57,048 bases of DNA from a virus. Taxonomy: Duplodnaviria; Caudoviricetes. Below the pieces are notes generated by a model. It did no database searches, was not told the DNA's origin, and saw only the letters and a program-made list of their open reading frames with translations. The stretch lies in the IMG/VR virus record IMGVR_UViG_3300046820_001085, positions 1-57,048 of that record; one strand, 5' to 3'. The position numbers and the translations under genes were made by a program. Within the stretch, counting starts at the first letter, position 1. The number at the start of each line of letters is the position of its first letter. Of the stretch, positions 42,194 through 55,233 are shown piece after piece.

Positions 42194-42327
42194 GGCAAAA
42201 ATATATTTTTAGGCCTGCTCAAAAAACCGGTGTTTTTACGGTAAGTATACGTAACCCCACTATCAGTTTCTCCGCTTTGGCATAATATGACTATACATTG
42301 CCGGCGGAGTGTGTTATTATAGATACT

Positions 42328-43785
42328 ATGCCAGGAATAACAAGACTAGAAATTAAAGACGAAGTAAATGTAAAGTTCCATGAACTGGATGCTAGTACAA
42401 GACGTCGTTGTGAGTCCAAATTAAAATACCAGTTGCCGTATGCTTACCACGTGCCTGCTTTCCGTTTAGGAAGGTGGGATGGTAAGATTGGATTTTTTAC
42501 TACTGCTGGAGCCACTTATATTAACTTACTGGATAGGATACTGCCTATCTTAGATGAGGAAGGTTGGCAAATTGAAATCGATGATCAAAGACAACAGCAC
42601 AATCTTAATTTTACAGAAGTTACCGAGGATACGTTTAGTCACATACTTTGGCCTAAAGGACACCCAGCAGAAGGTCAGCCAATTAAGATCCGTGACTACC
42701 AAGTAGAGTGTATCAATCGTTATCTTGCTAACCCGCATGGCGTCCAGGAAATTGCCACAGGCGCAGGTAAAACACTAATGACAGCGGCCATGAGTTTAAC
42801 ATGTGAGCCGTTTGGACGTACACTTGTTATTGTACCTAACAAAGACTTGGTTAGACAAACACATGCTGACTATGTTAACATGGGTCTGGATGTTGGTGTG
42901 TACTTTGGTGATGAGAAAGATCTAGGACATACACATACTATTGCAACATGGCAAAGTATTAACACACTTATCAAGAGACACAAGGAAGGTCTTAGTGAAA
43001 TAGGCATTGATGCTATTGTAGATGGTCTGGTTGCAGTTATTGTTGACGAAGTACACATGGCCAAGGCAGATGTGTTACGTACAATGCTAACTGGCCCGTT
43101 CGCACATATCCCAATTCGTTGGGGACTAACAGGTACTATCCCAAAAGAAGAACACGAGTACATTAGTTTGTTAGCATGTTTGGGTCCTGTGCTACACAGA
43201 CTACAGGCAAGCGAACTTCAGGACATAGGTGTTCTTTCTAACTGCCATGTCAAGGTATTACAGTTTGATGATAAAGTTGAATACAAAACTTATCAAGAGG
43301 AACTAACATACCTAACATCAAATGAAAAGCGCATGGACGAGCTTTCCAAAACAATTGATGCTATTAGTAAAACAGGCAATACACTTGTGCTAGTTGATCG
43401 TATTGCTTCGGGCAAGATGCTGGTTGAACGATTGCCAGAGAGTGTATTTGTTAGCGGCGCAATGAAAAGTAAAGACAGAAAAGACGAGTACGATGAAGTT
43501 ACCACTGCTGACAATAAAGTCATTGTAGCAACATATGGCGTGGCTGCTGTGGGTATTAACATTCCACGTATTTTTAATTTGGTTTTAGTAGAACCTGGCA
43601 AGAGCTTTGTGCGAGTAATTCAAAGTATTGGCCGAGGCATCAGGAAAGCACAAGACAAAGACTTTGTCCAAATATGGGACATAACAAGTACAGCAAAGTT
43701 TGCTAAACGGCATTTAGCCAAGCGCAAGAAGTTTTACGAAGAAGCAAACTATCCTTACCAAACAGAAAAGGTAATTTATAAATGA
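42328..43785 (+). CDS. uvsW: SF2 DNA helicase, UvsW-like
   Basis: RDYQ, ATGAGKT, DEVH, GLTGT, GINIP, QSIGRGIR. Start reassigned to the ATG at 42328, 7 nt after TGnTATTAT. Confidence 0.9.
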   Translation: MPGITRLEIKDEVNVKFHELDASTRRRCESKLKYQLPYAYHVPAFRLGRWDGKIGFFTTAGATYINLLDRILPILDEEGWQIEIDDQRQQHNLNFTEVTEDTFSHILWPKGHPAEGQPIKIRDYQVECINRYLANPHGVQEIATGAGKTLMTAAMSLTCEPFGRTLVIVPNKDLVRQTHADYVNMGLDVGVYFGDEKDLGHTHTIATWQSINTLIKRHKEGLSEIGIDAIVDGLVAVIVDEVHMAKADVLRTMLTGPFAHIPIRWGLTGTIPKEEHEYISLLACLGPVLHRLQASELQDIGVLSNCHVKVLQFDDKVEYKTYQEELTYLTSNEKRMDELSKTIDAISKTGNTLVLVDRIASGKMLVERLPESVFVSGAMKSKDRKDEYDEVTTADNKVIVATYGVAAVGINIPRIFNLVLVEPGKSFVRVIQSIGRGIRKAQDKDFVQIWDITSTAKFAKRHLAKRKKFYEEANYPYQTEKVIYK

Positions 43786-44297: not shown

Positions 44298-44789
44298 ATG
44301 GCAACTAAGAAAAAAGAATCTGCTAGTGCAAAATACAAAGTTCCAATTGATCAAATTATGGCGGCAGTAGACCTCCGCAACGGAGCGTATTACTCTAAAC
44401 TTGGTGATGAGGACAAGAAAACTGTAAGTACTTACATGGCTCAGCGTTGGGCAAGTCAAGTACAAGGTACTAGGGATGTACAGGAAGAATACTTGGTTAG
44501 TGTCAATGAGTACAGTAATGTTGACTATATTGCTACCACCAGCGCACATGAAGAACTGAGATGGCGAGCTCTTGCGCTATGCGGATTAGGCTTTAAACAA
44601 CGCCACGAGTTCATCCCACCAATTGGTGTAAAGAAGGACAAGTTAACAGAGTGGTTAATTAAACAGTTCCCATCGATGAGCAATGAAGAGATTGACTTGT
44701 TTAAAACAATCAACGGCACAGATGTGTTTGAGGACATTGCTGTTTCCCAAAACATGGGTAATAAAGAACTTAAAGATTTGTTTAAATAA
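44298..44789 (+). CDS. Putative clamp-loader small subunit (gp62-like)
   Basis: The pattern YMAQRWAS...VNEYSN...H.EL.W...KQRHEFI resembles gp62-family proteins. Replication context. Confidence 0.5.
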   Translation: MATKKKESASAKYKVPIDQIMAAVDLRNGAYYSKLGDEDKKTVSTYMAQRWASQVQGTRDVQEEYLVSVNEYSNVDYIATTSAHEELRWRALALCGLGFKQRHEFIPPIGVKKDKLTEWLIKQFPSMSNEEIDLFKTINGTDVFEDIAVSQNMGNKELKDLFK

Positions 44790-45481
44790 TGACAATGGAT
44801 TATCAATGTAAATTTTGCGGTAAAGCTTTTACACGCGAACGTACCTTAAGTAGCCATATGTGTGAGAAAAAGCGCAGGTGGATGTGTAAGGACGATATGG
44901 ATAGTCGTATGGCGTTTAGTATTTGGACAGACTTTATGAAGTTTGTAAGTCCAAACACTAAGAAAGCCAAAACTGTCGAGGACTTTATACGTAGTCAGGA
45001 TTACATTGGTTTTGTAAAATTTGCTAATTACTTGATAGAGCTCAAGCCAGTTGAAAGTGACAAGTTTATACAGTGGATTTTTAAGATGGGAGTTCGATTA
45101 AGTGATTGGCAACGACCCGGGACCTATCAACTCTACGTTCAAGAAGCCGCTAAAAAAGAAACAGCTGAACGTGCTTTGGAAAGAGCCATACTCGTCATGA
45201 GAGAGTGGGGTGAGGCAACTGGACAAGACTGGCAAAAGTTTTTTAACAAGATTGCGCCTGTAACAGGAATGAACTTGATAGTCATGGGCAGAATTAGTCC
45301 ATGGATTATATATTCCACTGATGCGGCACAAACATTATTAGACAGGATGGAGCCAGGACAGGTTGATACAGTGGCAAAACATGTGGATACAGGATGGTGG
45401 ATAAAAAAACTAAAGACAAATCAGGACGAAGTCCAGTGGATCAACACCACGATGGCGCAAGCACTAGATACGCTATGCTAG
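44789..45481 (+). CDS. Hypothetical protein with an N-terminal C2H2/C2HC-like zinc finger
   Basis: YQCKFCGKAFTRERTLSSHMC, coupled by a TAATG overlap. Confidence 0.7.
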   Translation: MTMDYQCKFCGKAFTRERTLSSHMCEKKRRWMCKDDMDSRMAFSIWTDFMKFVSPNTKKAKTVEDFIRSQDYIGFVKFANYLIELKPVESDKFIQWIFKMGVRLSDWQRPGTYQLYVQEAAKKETAERALERAILVMREWGEATGQDWQKFFNKIAPVTGMNLIVMGRISPWIIYSTDAAQTLLDRMEPGQVDTVAKHVDTGWWIKKLKTNQDEVQWINTTMAQALDTLC

Positions 45482-45597
45482 AAGCACGCCTAGCAGAGTT
45501 TATTTCTAAGTTTGACACCATGGCAGATGAGATGTCTGATATTAAGAAACAACAGGCCGACTTGATTGAGTTTGTTAAACAACAATTTAAAAAATGA
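45394..45597 (+). CDS. Small coiled-coil protein (start uncertain, may be 45475)
   Basis: Bridges the zinc-finger gene and the polymerase-like gene (ATGA overlap at 45594). Confidence 0.4.
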   Translation: MVDKKTKDKSGRSPVDQHHDGASTRYAMLEARLAEFISKFDTMADEMSDIKKQQADLIEFVKQQFKK

Positions 45598-46181
45598 ATT
45601 TACCTGACGTTGATATTGACTTTGCTGACAGAGAACAAGTTCTAAGATTATTAAATCATGTTCCTGCATTGCAGGCAATGCCCAACGGCACAAAGCAAAA
45701 GCACAAGACAGGGGTGTACTTTCATCCAGTACCAGTTAATCCCTTTACAGGTTGGTGTGATGTTGATTATCAACATGCAGAAGAGTTGGGATTCTTTAAA
45801 GTTGACTTACTCAATGTAAGTTTGTACCAACGTGTACAGAGCAAAGAACATCTTACACGTTTAGCTGATCAGGAGCCATTATGGGACTTACTTCAACAGG
45901 ACGACTTTGTAAATCTGTTATTTCATTTGAACGGGCACGGGGATATACTGAGGAAGACTTGCCCTACTTCCGTGGAACAATTATCTGCCGTCCTTGCTAT
46001 GATTCGCCCCGCCAAGAGATACTTGATTGGGAAGCCTTGGACGACGATTATGAAGGAAGTATGGAAGAAACCAGAGAATGGCGAGTACTACTTTAAGAAG
46101 AGTCATGCCACAGCTTATGCAGTTGCCATTGTGGCACAGATGAATTTGATCTGCGAACAGATCAGCTACGGATACAGTTAA
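45594..46181 (+). CDS. Miniature DNA polymerase III alpha (DnaE, family C)-like protein with palm and finger motifs only
   Basis: PDVDIDF, KHKTGVY, GFFKVDLL, AVLAMIRP and YYFKKSHATAYA occur in DnaE order within 195 aa. Confidence 0.8.
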   Translation: MNLPDVDIDFADREQVLRLLNHVPALQAMPNGTKQKHKTGVYFHPVPVNPFTGWCDVDYQHAEELGFFKVDLLNVSLYQRVQSKEHLTRLADQEPLWDLLQQDDFVNLLFHLNGHGDILRKTCPTSVEQLSAVLAMIRPAKRYLIGKPWTTIMKEVWKKPENGEYYFKKSHATAYAVAIVAQMNLICEQISYGYS

Positions 46182-46552
46182 TTCATTTTACGCACTAGAC
46201 TAATTTGTCTGCGTTTGGTGCGTTTAGTGATAACATTGGTCAAGCTAGTTTGGTGTCCGTGTAGTACTTCAAAATCTTTGGTACTGTAAGTTTTAAGAGT
46301 ATACACAAATCTACGCATTGGTTCTTTTAGAACAATGTTAATTGGTATCAAACGGTTAGAACCCCACCACCATTCCTCGCCCATTTCGACGAATAGCATC
46401 TTGTCCGTTTCATCCTTGAGTAAGTTATAAACATACATAGTGACAACTACAGCATCACTATTTTGTATGATTCCTACCAATTCATTTTCCCCATAACGCA
46501 CCAAACTCATGAACGGGAAGCGTTCTAGGAATTCTTTTACTTTATTATCCAT
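46178..46552 (-). CDS. Hypothetical protein
   Basis: 124 aa with a WWWGSNRLIPIN motif. TAAGTA box 6 nt before the ATG. Confidence 0.7.
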   Translation of the reverse strand: MDNKVKEFLERFPFMSLVRYGENELVGIIQNSDAVVVTMYVYNLLKDETDKMLFVEMGEEWWWGSNRLIPINIVLKEPMRRFVYTLKTYSTKDFEVLHGHQTSLTNVITKRTKRRQISLVRKMN

Positions 46553-47414: not shown

Positions 47415-48383
47415 ATGAGTATAGTTGAGACAACGTTACGGGCACACCTGCCTGCATTAAAATCAAACACAAACGGTTGGCTGACTATGAATTGCCCTAT
47501 GTGCATTCAAAATGGGCAAGCACGACCAGATACAAAGCATCGTGGTGGCATTAAGTTTGAACAGGATCGTGTAGGCTACCATTGTTTTAATTGCGGCTAT
47601 ACTACAGGATGGCGCCCGGGACAAAGGCTAGGTATCAAACTTATTAAGTTAATGCGTGTGCTAGGCATTGATGAAGGAGATATCCAACGTTTAAAAATAC
47701 AACTATGGGACCAAGTAGTTGAAGATGAAACGTTTGTAGTGGAGCCTTACAAAAAACCAGAATGGCCAGAAATAACTTGGCCATGGACCGTAAGAGATTT
47801 AAACTTAGAAGCCGCAGAGTATCTTGACAGCAGAGGTGTGTTAGAACTAAGCGACTGGTATACTAGTGCAAGCCCTATACAAGGTATGGACAATCGTGTT
47901 ATACTACCTTACATGAGTGATGGCAAGATTGTAGGATACACAGCACGTTGGATTGGTGATGTACCGGATAAGAAAACAGCAAAGATGGTCACAAGCAGAC
48001 CACCAAGCTTTGTATTCAATTTAGATCATCAAAGTCAATATCGCAAGTACACAATCGTAACAGAAGGCGAATATGATGCACTAACACTAGATGGTGTTGC
48101 GGTTATGACCAACAGCATCAGTCCAGAGCAAGCAAAGATTATTGAAGACATTGATAACGAACCAGTGGTACTACCAGACAAAGATCGAGCTGGCATGACA
48201 TTGGCATTGCAAGCGGCAGAATTGGGTTGGAGTGTTGCCTTTCCAGATTGGCCAGATGGAGTTAAGGATGCCAACGATGCGGCACAGCAGTTTGGAAGAG
48301 TTGCTACACTACAAAGTGTGTTATCGGCGATTGAGAGCTCACCATTAAAGATTAAATTATTAGCAAGGCGATGGTGTGTATAA
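47415..48383 (+). CDS. DNA primase, gp61-like
   Basis: Zinc ribbon CPMC...HCFNC, GYTAR, and TOPRIM motifs TEGEYDA, PDKD, KDAND. Confidence 0.9.
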   Translation: MSIVETTLRAHLPALKSNTNGWLTMNCPMCIQNGQARPDTKHRGGIKFEQDRVGYHCFNCGYTTGWRPGQRLGIKLIKLMRVLGIDEGDIQRLKIQLWDQVVEDETFVVEPYKKPEWPEITWPWTVRDLNLEAAEYLDSRGVLELSDWYTSASPIQGMDNRVILPYMSDGKIVGYTARWIGDVPDKKTAKMVTSRPPSFVFNLDHQSQYRKYTIVTEGEYDALTLDGVAVMTNSISPEQAKIIEDIDNEPVVLPDKDRAGMTLALQAAELGWSVAFPDWPDGVKDANDAAQQFGRVATLQSVLSAIESSPLKIKLLARRWCV

Positions 48384-48573
48384 AGTAAAGGTAGTCTGGC
48401 GGCTAGGACAAGACTCCAGTGAATGGTGGAACCAAGTTTGCATTTGGGCAATAGAAGAATTTGGATTACCAGGCAACAAGTATAAAACAGAACTAACAGA
48501 AGATTATATGATTTTTAATTTTGAAGAACAAGAAAATGCCGCCATAATGGCCTTGCGATGGGGGAATAATTAA
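48376..48573 (+). CDS. Small hypothetical protein
   Basis: 65 aa coupled between primase and helicase, with the pattern W...FG...F.....A....LRW. Confidence 0.65.
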   Translation: MYKVKVVWRLGQDSSEWWNQVCIWAIEEFGLPGNKYKTELTEDYMIFNFEEQENAAIMALRWGNN

Positions 48574-50048
48574 TGGATAAAGAATATAGTGTAAGTACGC
48601 AAACCTTGTACTTGCAGTTTCTAATTAGCAGTAGAGACTTAGCGGCAAGATGTAATAACATTTTGGATCCTGATCACTTTGATAGACGTATTAGGAAAGC
48701 CGCTGAGTTTATTAAAGACTATGTTAGCCAACATGGTGATATTCCAGATCCACTGCAAATTAAAGCAGTTGGCGGAGTTGATATTGAAAACATTGGACCC
48801 ACAGCCACACAACATAGCGCATGGTTCTTGGAAGAGTTTGAAAAGTTCTCAAGATACAAAGCATTAGAAAAAGCTATCTTGACAAGCTCGGATATGCTAG
48901 AGAAGCACGAGTATGGTGCAGTTGAGAAGTTAATTAAAGATGCAGTACAAGTTGGATTGCCAAAGACATTTGGTACAGACTACTTTGCAGATCCGGTAGC
49001 ACGCCTTAAAGCAATTAGAGACAACAATGGACAAGTGTCTACAGGCTGGAAAGACTTAGATGACAAACTATACGGTGGCTTTAACAAAGGTGAGCTAAAC
49101 ATTTTTGCTGGAGCATCTGGTGCAGGTAAAAGTTTGTTCTTGCAGAACTTGGCATTGAACTGGGCACAAGCAGGCATGAACACAGTTTACTTTAGTTTAG
49201 AACTTAGCGAGTTGTTGTGTAGTCAGCGTATGGATGCTATGTTAACTGACATGAGCACACGTGACTTGTACAAGCGACTAGATGAAGTTGAGCTCAAGGT
49301 TAAGTCTGCAGGTAAGAAGGGCGGCCTGCTACAAATTGTTCAACTTACCAATGGTATTACAGCCAACGATGTGTTGGCTTGGGTGCGTGAATTCCAAACA
49401 CAACGCAACATTAAAGTGGATGCTATCTTGGTCGACTACTTGGACTTGATGATGCCAGCAAGTCAAAAGATCAGTGTAAGTGACATGTTTGTCAAGGACA
49501 AGTTGGTAGCAGAAGAATTGCGTAACTTGGTTGTAAGCGAACATCTATTATTAGCAACCGCGTCACAGTTAAATCGTAGTGCTGTAGAAAGTGTAGAGTT
49601 TGACCACTCTATGATTGCAGGCGGCTTGAGTAAGATTCAAACAGCTGACAACGTGTTTGGTATCTACAGTACTCCCAGCATGAAAGAACGTGGCACAGTT
49701 CAAATCCAGTTTATGAAAACTCGTTCAAGTTCGGGTGTAGGACAAAAGATTGATTTGAGCTTTAATCCAGATACAATGCGTATCTCTAACTCAGTTGACA
49801 GCGGTGGCAGCACTACAACAAGTACTAAAGATTTGTATAGTAAGATTAGTAGAACAAGCAATATGGGCACAAGTGTTGCAACGCCAACAAGCAGTGGCCC
49901 AACGTCTTGGGAAAAGCCTCAGGCAAAAGAAGGGTTTGATATATCAAAACCAAATTCTGGATTGCCCACAGAAAAGCCCTCAAGTGCTCCAGTTGCTACT
50001 AATGCTAACAGAAACGCCTTAAGGGCTATTGTAAGTAGAGATCTTTAA
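48573..50048 (+). CDS. Replicative DnaB-like helicase, gp41-like
   Basis: STGWKDLD, GASGAGKS, FSLEL, VDYLDLM, TASQLNR, MKTR. Confidence 0.93.
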   Translation: MDKEYSVSTQTLYLQFLISSRDLAARCNNILDPDHFDRRIRKAAEFIKDYVSQHGDIPDPLQIKAVGGVDIENIGPTATQHSAWFLEEFEKFSRYKALEKAILTSSDMLEKHEYGAVEKLIKDAVQVGLPKTFGTDYFADPVARLKAIRDNNGQVSTGWKDLDDKLYGGFNKGELNIFAGASGAGKSLFLQNLALNWAQAGMNTVYFSLELSELLCSQRMDAMLTDMSTRDLYKRLDEVELKVKSAGKKGGLLQIVQLTNGITANDVLAWVREFQTQRNIKVDAILVDYLDLMMPASQKISVSDMFVKDKLVAEELRNLVVSEHLLLATASQLNRSAVESVEFDHSMIAGGLSKIQTADNVFGIYSTPSMKERGTVQIQFMKTRSSSGVGQKIDLSFNPDTMRISNSVDSGGSTTTSTKDLYSKISRTSNMGTSVATPTSSGPTSWEKPQAKEGFDISKPNSGLPTEKPSSAPVATNANRNALRAIVSRDL

Positions 50049-50777: not shown

Positions 50778-52054
50778 AAATCAACGAATTAAAAAGAACA
50801 ACTTTAGAAGAAGGGTTTTTAGATAATCTAATTTCTAAAGCTCAAAATATGGCAGGTGGTGACGGAGTAACTGGTTTCATCCGTGCTTTACGTGGCCAAG
50901 GCGCCGCCCTAAACAAAGTAGCAGATGGTATTGCTAATCAGGTTGAAGGCCCGTTATTAAAACAACTTGGCAACAGCGTCCAAGCAATCAAAGCAGGCCA
51001 AGCAGATGTACCTGTTGCCGCTATTATTAAGCTAGCCCTACAAGCAGGTGTATCTGTTTCACAAGCAGATAATAATGCTGTAAGTGCAGAACAAATTGTC
51101 GGCTACTTACGTGACAATAAGCAAAACGTAGTTCAGGTTGCTGGCGGTGGTGTCAACCAAGTTGCTGATACAATTGCAACAGTTGCCACAGGCGGCGAAG
51201 CAGGCCCCATTGGGTCAATGAACTTTGACCAAACTATTAAAAATGTTAGCTTGGCAATTGCATCTTCTATTATTTTATTACAAGCAGATTCACAAAGTGC
51301 AGGTCCTTTTCAAGTAGACCCAGCAGAGAAACAAAAGTTTGATCAGTTAGGACAGCAAGTCATTGATACTTTGTTTGATCCTACTAGCCAAGACTTTAGA
51401 GCACTTAAACCAAACGAAGCTCTTAAAGAAAACTTATCTGGCTTGGTTGTACACATTATCAACACAGTACAAAATAAGTTAGTAGACTTGCCAGCAGAAC
51501 GATTACAAGCATTAGCTGGTAATCCTCCCCCTATTGTTACTGCTACACAATTAAAAACTTTACTAGCCGGACATGATGCTAGCATTGATCCAAATGCTGT
51601 AAACAACATTGTAACAAAAGTTACTCCGTTGATTCAAGAACAATTAAAGGCTTGGATTGTTATTGCCGCTAAAGAACCTAAACAAGGTAAGCCTGTGTCA
51701 TTCCAGTTGTATAAAGATTGGGGCGGTGATGCATTTGGCTTAATTGACAATATGAAATTTGGTGCAGGAGCCCAAGCCGCTGGCGAAGCCCCTGCCGCAG
51801 GTGGAACACCATCAAGTCCTGAAACTGGTGGCACACCAGCAAGCGCCGAAACTGGAACAACAGCTACAACAGAACCACCACCAACAACCTCACCGCCACC
51901 TGGTGATGCGGCAATCTTTACAGATCCACAAGCACTACAAGCTGAATGGCAAAAGTTCCTGGACTCAAATGGCAGGTTGATTACTGAACCGCAAGTACTT
52001 GAGTTACTAAAAGATATGTGGAAGTATGCTGGCGGCGTAGGAAATTTCAAATGA
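50774..52054 (+). CDS. Putative internal virion protein
   Basis: N-terminus MKINEL...LEE|G. Ala/Gln-rich helical body, P/T/A linker and a C-terminal module shared with the next gene. Confidence 0.65.
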   Translation: MKINELKRTTLEEGFLDNLISKAQNMAGGDGVTGFIRALRGQGAALNKVADGIANQVEGPLLKQLGNSVQAIKAGQADVPVAAIIKLALQAGVSVSQADNNAVSAEQIVGYLRDNKQNVVQVAGGGVNQVADTIATVATGGEAGPIGSMNFDQTIKNVSLAIASSIILLQADSQSAGPFQVDPAEKQKFDQLGQQVIDTLFDPTSQDFRALKPNEALKENLSGLVVHIINTVQNKLVDLPAERLQALAGNPPPIVTATQLKTLLAGHDASIDPNAVNNIVTKVTPLIQEQLKAWIVIAAKEPKQGKPVSFQLYKDWGGDAFGLIDNMKFGAGAQAAGEAPAAGGTPSSPETGGTPASAETGTTATTEPPPTTSPPPGDAAIFTDPQALQAEWQKFLDSNGRLITEPQVLELLKDMWKYAGGVGNFK

Positions 52055-55000
52055 AAATAAAACAATTAAACAAACTGACCGAGGCACTGATTGTTAGACA
52101 GCAGGTCTTAACTGAATCGTGCAAGGGGTTAACCAACGAGCAAGCATACGTTGTAAACAGAATCTACAAAGAATTTTCACCACTGGTTGAAGCTGTATTA
52201 ACACAAGATCAAATTAACAACATCTTTAAGGGCATTGAACAAGGTGCAACAGCAGGCGGCAATAACCGTACCATGGTTGGTAAAGGTGTTGATGTTGCTA
52301 AAGAAGTTAACAAGATTATGGACCAAGTTGGTACTTGGTTACAAGATACAGCACCTGTTCAGTTCTTTGACAAGAAATTTGAAGAACTAAAAACAAAAAT
52401 TAAAAGTGGACTTGGCGAAGACAGCAAAACCATGGGCTACATCAATGCGCTTGGGCAAGCCGCAAAAGATAATCCAGGAACAACCGCCGCAGTTATTGGT
52501 CTATTGACAGTTGTTGCTGGTTTAGTTGGAAGTCCTGCCGCTGCCACTTTAGTTGCTTATACATTACGATCAGGTGTTAGCTTAGTCAAAGGTGAAAAAC
52601 TTTCTACAGCAGTTGGACAAGGTCTAAAGACAGCCGCTATTACTTGGCTTACTGGTAAAGCATTTGAACTTGTCAAAGATGCTGTCATTGCAGTTGCAGA
52701 CAAACTAGTAGATCTTGTTAGCATTACTACAAATATTACGCCTGTCAATGATGTAATTGGTAATGTAAACATGAACGTAAACGTAGATGGGCAAAGCTAT
52801 ATCAACGTCACTGAAATGCCAATGCTTAAGGCAGACTACACTCAGCTAGACGGATTAAAACAATCATTCTATGATGCAATGCCTCCAGGTGGCAACGGAG
52901 CAGATGCGGCAACAGCACTACAAGCTTTCAATGCTAAGTTAGCAGAACTTACAACAGCTGAGTATGCACAAAAAGTAGCCGAAGCGGCTTCTGGCGCCGG
53001 AGCAGATAGCTCAACATTAGCCTTCACAACATACGACACAGTTCGTGACGGTATGAATCAAGTTGGCGATGCTGTAACAGCATTGGCACAAGGTGTTGCC
53101 GCAGGTGTTAGCGCAATGCCAAACAGCACAGACGCTACAACTACACCCGATACTACAACTACACCTGAACCACAAGGTACTACATTAGATACAGACGCTG
53201 GTAAAGAACAAAGTGGCCCAGGCAATCGAAAGGTCAATGATATTGTACAATTTGGCGCCAAAGGCGAACTAAGCAATGCTCGTTGGACAGGCGAAGAAGG
53301 AAAAGAATGGGAAATCATTGGTGGCTCATTGTTTAATAGAATTATTAACGATCCGTCCACTGATAGAATGAATAACATTCAACGTGATACATCTAGCAAG
53401 ATGCACAAGTTGTTTGTAGACAAAGATAGTGCTAAACGATTGTTTACTCTTGAAGGTAGACGTTTAGCACGTGGCCAACAACGAGCAGTATTTGAAGGCA
53501 TTCAATACATTTACGAAGAGCCCAACTTGCTTGCTAAGATTCAGCAAGGTGCTACAAACCTACTAGGAAAACTTGCAGTCAAAGGCGGCAACTTAACAAA
53601 TAAAGTTACAGCAGACAAGCTACAACAGGCTTGGGTTAAAGCTGGTAAGCCAATGGACAGTGATGACATCATGGACTTCTTGGTTAAACAAGGGGTTGAT
53701 AAAAACGTTGCTGGTTCTACATTTGACAGTTTAAGTATTCCAAGAACACAACCAGCGCAAAAGAAACCAGCACCAACGCCAGATACATCTACAACGCCTG
53801 CTACACCGGATGCTACAGCTACAACAGATGCTACTCCTGCCACTGACACACCAGCTACACCAGATGCTACAGCACCCGCGCCAGCAACAGCAGATGCTAC
53901 AGCAACAACTACTCCTGCTACTGACACGCCAGCAAAACCAGCCGCTCCTACAGGAAGTATCTTTAGCGACTTTAATAGACTACGTACAGCGTGGCAACAG
54001 TTCTCTGACTCAGGCGATAACAAATTACCTATCCAAGTTAAAGGTGTGCTAGGTGATATTCTTAAGACAGCGTTCAATACAGTTGAAAGTCGTCGTATCC
54101 TAAACAACAAGCTTATCAAGCTAACAGAAGCTAAAGCACGCATTGACCACCCAGAAGATTTAGTATTTGAAGAAGGCGCCGATGGTGCAATGCGAGCTCT
54201 TAATGCTATCAAGCACGCCGCAGTTGATCCAAAGTCAAACTCTGTAAAGTGGGATGGTACTCCTGCTATTATCTTTGGTCGTGATGAAGATGGCTTTATT
54301 ATGACAGATAAGGCAGGCTTTGGTGCCAAGAAATATGATGGTATGGCACGTAGTGCCAAGATGTTCCGTGACATGATTTACAATCGTAAGCCAGACGAGC
54401 AGGGACGATTAGAGTACTCTACACAAATTGCCAAACTATATCCAATGTTAGAAAAATTAGTTCCTGCTAAATTCCGTGGATTTATCCAAGGTGACATTAT
54501 GTGGATGAGCAAACCAGAAGTTCACGATGGTGCAATTGAAATCCAACCGTTAAAGGTAAAGTATACAATTGATCCAAGTAGTGATTTGGGTAAAAAGATT
54601 AAAGCAAGTAATGCTGGTATTGTTGTACACAGCTACTTTACAGATCGTGCAGAAGAAGAGCCACGTGCAATGACTCCTGCTGAAATCGAAGCTTTAAAGC
54701 CAAGCCCGGGCCTTGTAGTGTTAAGCCCTGTAATGCAAGTTAAGTCTGCACCATTTGAAATGGCACAAAGCGATATTCAAGTAATTGAAAACGAAATTGA
54801 AAAGAGTCGTGCTGGAATTAACAAGCTATTAGACAGCTTCTCTGTAAGTGCTTTAAAGATTTCTAACTTGTCTGATATCTTTAAAAGCTTCCTAAACTAC
54901 AAAGCGGGCATTGGCGAACACGGCCCAAGCGGCAAAGAGTTCCTGGATTGGTTGAAAGATCCAAGTAGAAGCAAGCTAACAACTAATAAGATTCAAAATG

Positions 55001-55233
55001 TACTTGATCATATCTCTAAGAATAAAGCAGGCTTTACCGCAGTATTCAAAATTGCCAATATGTTGGTTGAGTTAAAGTACAGATTGAAAGATCAACTTGA
55101 TGCACATGCTAGCCAAGGTGCCGCAGTTACAGCATCAGTTAGAGAACATCCTGGCCATGAAGGCTTTGTAGCAGACACACCACACGGTAAAATTAAACTA
55201 GTAAATAGACCTGTGTTTATGAAAAAGGTATAA
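52051..55233 (+). CDS. Large putative internal virion protein with a C-terminal KxDG ligase/nucleotidyltransferase-like domain (DUF6267-like)
   Basis: Start at ATG 52051 (MKIKQL..LTE|A). Hydrophobic segment, P/A/T linkers, and C-terminal HPED, VKWDG, FIQGD, HEGFV, IKLV motifs. Confidence 0.7.
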   Translation: MKIKQLNKLTEALIVRQQVLTESCKGLTNEQAYVVNRIYKEFSPLVEAVLTQDQINNIFKGIEQGATAGGNNRTMVGKGVDVAKEVNKIMDQVGTWLQDTAPVQFFDKKFEELKTKIKSGLGEDSKTMGYINALGQAAKDNPGTTAAVIGLLTVVAGLVGSPAAATLVAYTLRSGVSLVKGEKLSTAVGQGLKTAAITWLTGKAFELVKDAVIAVADKLVDLVSITTNITPVNDVIGNVNMNVNVDGQSYINVTEMPMLKADYTQLDGLKQSFYDAMPPGGNGADAATALQAFNAKLAELTTAEYAQKVAEAASGAGADSSTLAFTTYDTVRDGMNQVGDAVTALAQGVAAGVSAMPNSTDATTTPDTTTTPEPQGTTLDTDAGKEQSGPGNRKVNDIVQFGAKGELSNARWTGEEGKEWEIIGGSLFNRIINDPSTDRMNNIQRDTSSKMHKLFVDKDSAKRLFTLEGRRLARGQQRAVFEGIQYIYEEPNLLAKIQQGATNLLGKLAVKGGNLTNKVTADKLQQAWVKAGKPMDSDDIMDFLVKQGVDKNVAGSTFDSLSIPRTQPAQKKPAPTPDTSTTPATPDATATTDATPATDTPATPDATAPAPATADATATTTPATDTPAKPAAPTGSIFSDFNRLRTAWQQFSDSGDNKLPIQVKGVLGDILKTAFNTVESRRILNNKLIKLTEAKARIDHPEDLVFEEGADGAMRALNAIKHAAVDPKSNSVKWDGTPAIIFGRDEDGFIMTDKAGFGAKKYDGMARSAKMFRDMIYNRKPDEQGRLEYSTQIAKLYPMLEKLVPAKFRGFIQGDIMWMSKPEVHDGAIEIQPLKVKYTIDPSSDLGKKIKASNAGIVVHSYFTDRAEEEPRAMTPAEIEALKPSPGLVVLSPVMQVKSAPFEMAQSDIQVIENEIEKSRAGINKLLDSFSVSALKISNLSDIFKSFLNYKAGIGEHGPSGKEFLDWLKDPSRSKLTTNKIQNVLDHISKNKAGFTAVFKIANMLVELKYRLKDQLDAHASQGAAVTASVREHPGHEGFVADTPHGKIKLVNRPVFMKKV

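Follow-up and report, generated by a model that had tools for sequence, protein, structure and literature searches.

The C-terminal half of a split, minimal DNA polymerase III alpha-like module encoded by a freshwater phage

The DNA analysed here (the window) is the entire 57,048-bp viral record IMGVR_UViG_3300046820_001085 from IMG/VR, which derives from a freshwater phage and is estimated to be 17% complete. The gene of interest encodes a protein of 195 residues with the features expected of the C-terminal, metal- and template-binding half of a split, minimal DNA polymerase III (Pol III) alpha-like module, and will be referred to as the C-half (Table 1). The original prediction, which was made from the letters of the DNA, placed the start of the open reading frame (ORF) almost exactly at PDVDIDF, and this is what is seen: the ORF begins with ATG, the N-terminus reads MNLPDVDIDF, and the motifs KHKTGVY, GFFKVDLL, AVLAMIRP and YYFKKSHATAYA are all present. 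The DxDxD strand was aligned both to residues 412–425 of Mycobacterium tuberculosis DnaE1 and to the Thermus aquaticus (Taq) enzyme from residue 459 onwards. Asp7 and Asp9 align with the DxD of the PDIDxDF strand and Asp71 with the aspartate of the K-x-D-F-L strand, so that the three catalytic acidic residues of the C-family palm are kept, as had been proposed; we take them to be the equivalents of Asp401, Asp403 and Asp555 of Escherichia coli DnaE. The RP and FNKSH finger motifs of DnaE, both of which have counterparts in the C-half, sit by the incoming deoxynucleoside triphosphate and the template.

No Pfam family was found in the C-half at E ≤ 0.01, nor at E ≤ 10. Residues 5–189 are matched by positions 8–194 of PHROG 11778, a profile of 197 positions labelled "DNA polymerase" (E 8.1e-62), and residues 152–185, which include the FKKSH motif, match positions 775–809 of PHROG 405 (phrog_405), a polymerase family of 1190 positions. 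Comparison of the single sequence with M. tuberculosis DnaE1 gave three weak, collinear matches, with residues 2–15, 91–140 and 163–177 on 412–425, 613–663 and 773–787, respectively (E 0.076). A clearer picture came from a profile built on an alignment of the C-half with 91 full-length, diverse representatives, 27–55% identical to the query. Against the sequences of the PDB this gave 11 matches at E ≤ 1, of which the top nine (E 1.9e-5 to 1.2e-4) were without exception Pol III alpha sequences of Thermus, E. coli or M. tuberculosis, and the other two were unrelated (E 0.7).

The AlphaFold model calculated from the same alignment has a mean predicted local distance difference test score (pLDDT) of 96.7 and a predicted template modelling score (pTM) of 0.88. 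When the model was submitted to Foldseek, ranks 1–17 were all DNA polymerases of the DnaE/PolC kind, five of them at E ≤ 0.001, and the lower ranks were noise except for a further PolC at rank 36. The comparison with DnaE structures that the original prediction had proposed therefore found the palm fold, with 190–193 of the 195 residues superposing on the DnaE/PolC structures at 3.4–4.0 Å. The likeness of the C-half to Pol III alpha is one of true homology. The C-half spans the equivalent of E. coli DnaE 398–784, a stretch of ~385 residues of which about half has no counterpart in the phage protein. In the sequence alignment with the Taq enzyme the parts without counterpart are ~522–600 and ~706–808, which we take to be the thumb and part of the fingers. 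The excision of thumb and fingers suggested from the motifs alone was borne out, in that the thumb has no counterpart and roughly half of the finger region that is covered is absent. The PHP, helix-hairpin-helix (HhH), OB and clamp-binding parts are missing, as was also anticipated. A C-family enzyme proper, as modelled by PF07733, PF02811 (PHP) and PF17657 (fingers) in Pfam and by TIGR00594 in NCBIfam, unites a PHP domain, thumb, full fingers, complete palm and clamp-binding and OB parts in a single chain, which this polypeptide does not.

The C-half belongs to a large family of short proteins. In a word-indexed search that covered lengths of 107–342 residues, 6068 proteins matched at E ≤ 0.001, and the 120 matches listed are all 167–199 residues long. 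An exhaustive search of representatives at 50% identity gave 410 at E ≤ 0.001, and all but one of the 150 listed have 233 residues or fewer. No significant match was found among 574 candidates in a search for longer, fused homologues, a result that is itself rated as weak evidence. Lys69, Asp71 and Pro139 are invariant across the 92 aligned sequences, and Arg138 (91), Asp5 and Asp7 (90 each), His37, Gly40 and His171 (89 each) and Asp9 (88) are nearly so; Lys168 is found in 84, with arginine in six more. To measure selection, the window gene was compared by the method of Nei and Gojobori with 25 full-length relatives from viral contigs, chosen from 80 loci as those whose matches cover residues 1–195 without change of length. 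Synonymous sites were saturated in four, and in the remaining 21 comparisons the ratio of nonsynonymous to synonymous substitution rates (dN/dS) was 0.049–0.094. With tblastn the C-half was found in 96 deposited phage genomes, with at least 80% of the query covered in each and identities all below 60%. These are phages of the RaK2, 121Q/PBECO4, GAP32, CBB, PA5oct, Atu_ph07 and XacN1 kinds, in which the gene is annotated as "hypothetical", "DNA polymerase" or "DNA polymerase III alpha". Among them is Sharanji, a coliphage of the 121Q/PBECO4 type for which E. coli K-12 MG1655 is given as host. A scan of cellular genomes with the protein, which reaches only close relatives, gave a single match of 34 residues at the end of a 3.4-kb contig of a metagenome-assembled genome (MAG); the gene order there is phage-like and the match is not a fusion. 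The C-half is a maintained gene and not a remnant, in agreement with the earlier view that it is not the product of random decay.

That view also held the C-half to be one subunit of a split module, and a candidate for the other is indeed encoded by its relatives. A separate protein of ~170 residues carrying a GRGS segment (the N-half), with an end of the type ...GVGRGSS...KEF[IL][KR], is present in all six relatives of at least 86% completeness: five complete genomes (PA5oct, RaK2, Phosso, Atu_ph07 and Slickus01) and G001, a viral contig of 285 kb that is 86% complete and whose C-half is 83% identical to that of the window. Four relatives of 40–53% completeness gave no N-half match; they are fragments and say nothing either way. 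PA5oct, RaK2, Phosso and Atu_ph07 each have exactly one match to PF07733 above the cut-off, at model positions ~18–98 of 260. The protein has 169 residues in PA5oct, with the end ...GVGRGSSVAS...KEFLK, and 172 residues in RaK2, with the end ...GLGRGSSVSS...NEFLKY, and stops where the C-half of the window starts. A fold search places it on E. coli DnaE 270–393, directly ahead of the C-half; on the DnaE map the one ends at ~393 and the other begins at ~398. The N-half family comprises 454 matches, the 120 listed being 148–189 residues long and all with PF07733, and its GRGS segment does not vary in any of the 70 sequences compared. Of the records in the phage collection, 88 have the N-half and 96 the C-half, with a nearly equal breakdown by host. 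The two genes are 11–224 kb apart in the six relatives. The shortest of these distances, ~11 kb, is that of the complete Alishewanella phage vB_AspM_Slickus01 (OQ508957.1), which carries both halves together with a family-B polymerase in a genome of 141,644 bp, below the 200-kb threshold for jumbo phages; the split module thus extends beyond the jumbo phages. In PA5oct, RaK2 and G001 the N-half gene is followed by an ORF of 113–132 residues and then by one that by eye resembles GroES, of 108 residues in PA5oct, 124 in G001 and, counted from the first start codon, 172 in RaK2.

A family-B polymerase (PolB; PF00136), which had been expected for T4-like phages, was found in all six relatives that have the N-half. 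The search for a GRGS ORF and a PolB gene proposed in the original prediction was accordingly successful in these genomes; in the window, a 17% fragment, it gave neither. The PolB match lies in a single frame of 881–1013 residues in RaK2, Phosso, G001 and a further relative, G002, and extends over two separate open frames in Atu_ph07 (418 and 578 residues), PA5oct (825 and 379) and Slickus01 (578 and 322). Judging from these frames, some members may have a split main replicase as well.

Co-folding of the C-half with a candidate partner had also been proposed, and for this the N-half of G001 was paired with the C-half of the window, each with its own family alignment. The complex scored 0.91 in all three runs, against 0.00 for the best of three controls. 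The same mark is reached by 116 of 157 solved complexes and two of 215 mismatched pairs, a calibration that holds roughly, since custom alignments were used. The runs share at least 96% of their contacts and the pLDDT of the partner is at least 91. The tightest predicted contacts are between residues 134–136 of the N-half, just ahead of GRGS, and residues 8–10 of the C-half in the DxD strand; residues 142 and 160–162 of the N-half are also predicted to lie against residues 169–174 of the C-half, in the FKKSH helix. On this model the two halves probably bind each other. A protein from outside the window, P0328 (375 residues), carries the two as a natural single chain: residues 69–180 match the N-half (44% identity, E 1e-27) and, after a linker of seven residues, residues 188–370 match the C-half of the window (36% identity, E 7e-39), with PF07733 spanning the junction (97–207). 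Either a genuine single-chain form or an artefact of assembly or gene calling would account for it, and we treat it as a lead rather than as proof.

The remaining genes of the window are of the T4-related group 2 phage type. They encode a gp23-type major head protein (PHROG 138), sheath, tube and terminase, a gp32-like single-stranded DNA-binding protein, UvsX and UvsY, and also the UvsW-type helicase, primase and DnaB. The C-half lies within a replication block in which the UvsW-type helicase is followed by three to four small ORFs, the C-half, an ORF of ~120 residues on the opposite strand, a structural protein, the primase and DnaB, and the order of this block is conserved in PA5oct, RaK2, Phosso, Atu_ph07 and Slickus01. 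RaK2 annotates uvsW at the same relative place as the helicase of the window, and the order of primase and DnaB is the same in PA5oct, RaK2 and Phosso. The stop codons of the C-half and of the converging ORF overlap, so that there is no room for a terminator; a tail-to-tail overlap of 4–26 nt with the C-half is annotated in PA5oct, RaK2, Phosso, Atu_ph07 and Slickus01. A search of the Protein Atlas with the converging ORF gave no usable match. The short ORF beginning MVDK that precedes the C-half overlaps, by 88 nt and in another frame, the gene for a 230-residue protein with a zinc finger. A version of 66–68 residues is found in six close relatives and the same peptide in two others; it was not found in PA5oct, RaK2 or Phosso. 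The zinc-finger protein is also found just upstream of the C-half in PA5oct and in one MAG contig. Earlier papers place a DnaQ/epsilon-like exonuclease near uvsW, and a Pfam scan of 23 further window proteins found none. Contigs from RNA libraries that are identical to the window cover positions 45555–45902 (two freshwater studies), and those of a relative of ~94% similarity cover 45763–46170 (an estuary run). These give a weak hint that the region of the C-half is transcribed, given that carry-over of DNA is possible and that the uncovered parts are no evidence of silence.

Table 1. Features of the window that are discussed in the text, with their positions and strand.
Feature	Position	Strand	Size or residues	Remarks
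UvsW-type helicase	42298..43785	+		Start of the conserved replication block; Pfam ResIII, DEAD, Helicase_C; PHROG 16
Zinc-finger protein	44789..45481	+	230 aa	N-terminal C2H2-type zinc finger, below the Pfam cut-off (E 1.9e-4); PHROG 11058 (E 7e-61)
MVDK ORF	45394..45597	+	67 aa	Predicted helical; stop overlaps the start codon of the C-half (ATGA)
C-half of the split minimal Pol III alpha-like module	45594..46181	+	195 aa	C-terminal, metal- and template-binding half
DxDxD strand	45606..45620	+	D5-V-D7-I-D9	Aligns with the PDIDxDF metal-binding strand of DnaE
K-x-D	45798..45806	+	K69-V-D71	Aligns with K-x-D of DnaE (LKMDFLGL in Taq), holder of the third acidic residue
Finger motif	46005..46010	+	R138-P139	Aligns with RP of DnaE
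Finger motif	46092..46106	+	F167-K-K-S-H171	Aligns with FNKSH of DnaE
Converging ORF	46178..46552	-	124 aa	Stop codons of this ORF and the C-half overlap; PHROG 11637 (E 1.7e-30)
Primase, 65-aa ORF and DnaB-like helicase	47415..50048	+		Primase 47415-48383, DnaB-like helicase 48573-50048; Toprim_2, DnaB_C; PHROGs 47 and 19
Large protein	52018..55233	+	1071 aa	C-terminal 360 residues match DUF6267 (E 1.7e-35)

The split, minimal Pol III alpha is not new, and the window holds another member. Passages of Iyer, Anantharaman, Krishnan, Burroughs and Aravind (2021; Viruses 13:63; PMC7824862) already describe it from sequence for the jumbo phages of their group 2.2, propose a role in the synthesis of one strand or in repair, and take the split protein as a model of the ancestral enzyme. 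The N-half has in addition been noted as a "truncated" Pol III alpha, as gp316 of Atu_ph07 (PMC6102473) and, in a passage on phage CBB, as the 172-residue CBB_328 (PMC5259590). The form goes unmentioned in the passages found in a survey of bacterial polymerases from 2026 (PMC12926913) and in a structural study from 2024 on nucleotidyltransferase folds (PMC11646218). The C-half shares with the C-terminal unit of Iyer et al and with PHROG 11778 a standalone Pol III alpha-like protein of ~190 residues that starts at the DxD strand; in the six relatives, as in the module of T4-related giant phages outlined in those passages, the N-terminal NTP-binding unit is on a distant gene and a family-B polymerase is also encoded. 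Nothing essential sets the C-half apart; the present copy comes from an uncultured freshwater fragment. With DnaE and PolC (PDB 2hnh, 2hpi, 3e0d, 5lew and 3f2b) it has in common the palm fold and the order of the motifs DxD, K-x-D, RP and FxKSH. It differs from them in size, with 195 residues, or about 365 with its partner, as against 900–1200 or more, in a palm that is split over two chains between the GS segment and the DxD strand, and in the lack of the PHP, clamp-binding, HhH, OB and tau-binding parts. Phages also encode full-length C-family polymerases (PHROG 405), for example those of the group 3.2 jumbo phages such as Bacillus phage G; according to passages of PMC7824862 these are host-like, have a PHP domain and act as the replicase, whereas the protein of the window belongs to a minimal, split form that in its relatives accompanies a family-B replicase. 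What the present analysis adds is modest: the back-to-back structural mapping of the halves, the pair in a 142-kb phage, the metagenome scale of the family and one candidate natural fusion, together with the figures for selection and conservation and a complex prediction that passes.

We read the C-half as one subunit, the C-terminal one, of a minimised C-family (Pol III alpha-like) nucleotidyltransferase that is made in two pieces by T4-related giant phages of group 2.2, RaK2, 121Q, PA5oct and Atu_ph07 being examples. To this reading we give a probability of roughly 0.8. It draws on what the computations show: the homology and the fold, the division of the core between two genes, the presence of the partner and of PolB in the same genomes, purifying selection and the predicted binding. 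That the module has this identity and is split is highly probable, while templated DNA polymerase activity would seem to have a little less than an even chance. The C-half would supply Asp7 and Asp9 on the first strand and Asp71 on a later one, Lys69, Arg138-Pro139, the F-K-K-S-H motif ending at His171 and a shortened finger region, and the separate protein of ~170 residues, encoded elsewhere in the genome outside the 57-kb fragment, would contribute the nucleotide-binding GRGS segment and the beginning of the palm. In the model the strand at residues 134–136 of the N-half is predicted to pair with the DxD strand, and we infer that the heterodimer would rebuild a Pol-beta-like active site and be catalytically active. 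Because it lacks the thumb, PHP, clamp-binding and OB parts, it would probably act as a distributive DNA polymerase on short patches, which may work beside the family-B replicase, for example in primer extension, gap filling or repair. Such a role fits the location of the C-half between the genes for the UvsW helicase and for primase and DnaB.

A number of observations weigh against this reading. NCBIfam TIGR00594 gives the C-half 21.9 bits, far below its cut-off of 434.35, and the Pfam model PF07733 does not reach into it. Neither the N-half nor PolB is seen in the window: PF07733 had no match there, nor did the N-half of PA5oct at E ≤ 10, a regular expression for the GS motif run over 59 chosen ORFs gave only low-complexity or unrelated matches, and PF00136 found no PolB. 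In RaK2 and PA5oct the N-half lies 34–44 kb past the C-half, and just 11 kb follow the C-half in the window. The N-half profile, when compared with the PDB sequences, found no DnaE at E ≤ 1; its likeness to DnaE does emerge with Pfam and with the fold search. The N-half in the complex model was taken from a relative and not from the phage of the window, and both halves resemble one solved protein, DnaE, so that the pass may stem from that likeness. P0328 is a singleton on one contig of 2,415 bp, with no relatives in the viral-contig or metagenome-contig collections. Full-text literature searches found no experimental paper on the enzymatic activity of any member, and with the thumb, the holder of the primer-template in DnaE, absent along with the clamp-binding, OB and PHP parts, synthesis on a template cannot be taken for granted.

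One alternative is that the two pieces do form a working nucleotidyltransferase, but one that does not synthesise DNA on a template. Its activity might be the untemplated extension of DNA or RNA ends, the transfer of a nucleotide to a protein or a modified base, or the making or destruction of a nucleotide signal in a conflict with host defence. The Pol-beta-like core is common to many enzymes that are not polymerases, as a passage of PMC11646218 sets out, about half of the covered finger region and all of the processivity parts are missing besides the thumb, and these phages already have a family-B replicase. We nevertheless consider such an activity improbable, since the conservation extends beyond the acidic triad to the DnaE-specific finger motifs Arg138-Pro139 and F-K-K-S-H171, the gene sits inside the replication block with a helicase on one side and primase and DnaB on the other, and the top structural matches are all DNA polymerases, with no other nucleotidyltransferases among them.

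The loss of so much of the polymerase, the lack of any reported activity and the adjoining replisome genes would also suit a remnant without catalytic function that scaffolds or regulates the replisome, for instance through contacts with the primase, the helicase or PolB. A pure scaffold would not be expected to keep its metal- and nucleotide-binding residues near-invariant across sequences only 27–55% identical to the query, nor its partner to keep GRGS in all 70 sequences, and this makes the proposal very unlikely. Less credible still, to the point where it can practically be set aside, is a decaying fragment, or pseudogene, of a full-length host dnaE that the phage acquired. It can appeal to the earlier description of the CBB N-half as 'truncated', with 172 residues against 1120, in a passage of PMC5259590. 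It is contradicted by the 6068 homologues in the short length range, by the lengths of the 120 listed, by dN/dS values of 0.05–0.09 and, weakly, by the lack of a longer form among the 574 candidates; the same protein ends are moreover found in phages of hosts from Agrobacterium to Escherichia.

C-family polymerases are the replicases of bacteria and are unrelated to those of archaea and eukaryotes, and in Bacillus one such enzyme, DnaE, hands off to another, PolC. By analogy, the two-chain, thumbless module of ~365 residues might be an active DNA polymerase that serves as a specialised second enzyme of the replisome, taking over from the adjacent primase and handing off to the family-B replicase. 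We offer this as a tentative idea that is on balance unlikely; if true, the module would be the smallest C-family polymerase known and would model the ancestral Pol III core in living form, and its assembly from two chains would be open to regulation. What the smallest working C-family core is, and what the ancestral form was, are questions that a conserved two-piece core of this size could address. Thousands of phage genomes keep the module beside a family-B replicase and under strong purifying selection. It is a ready-made test object, and it could show what the thumb, PHP and clamp-binding parts are needed for and why a phage keeps two unrelated polymerases.
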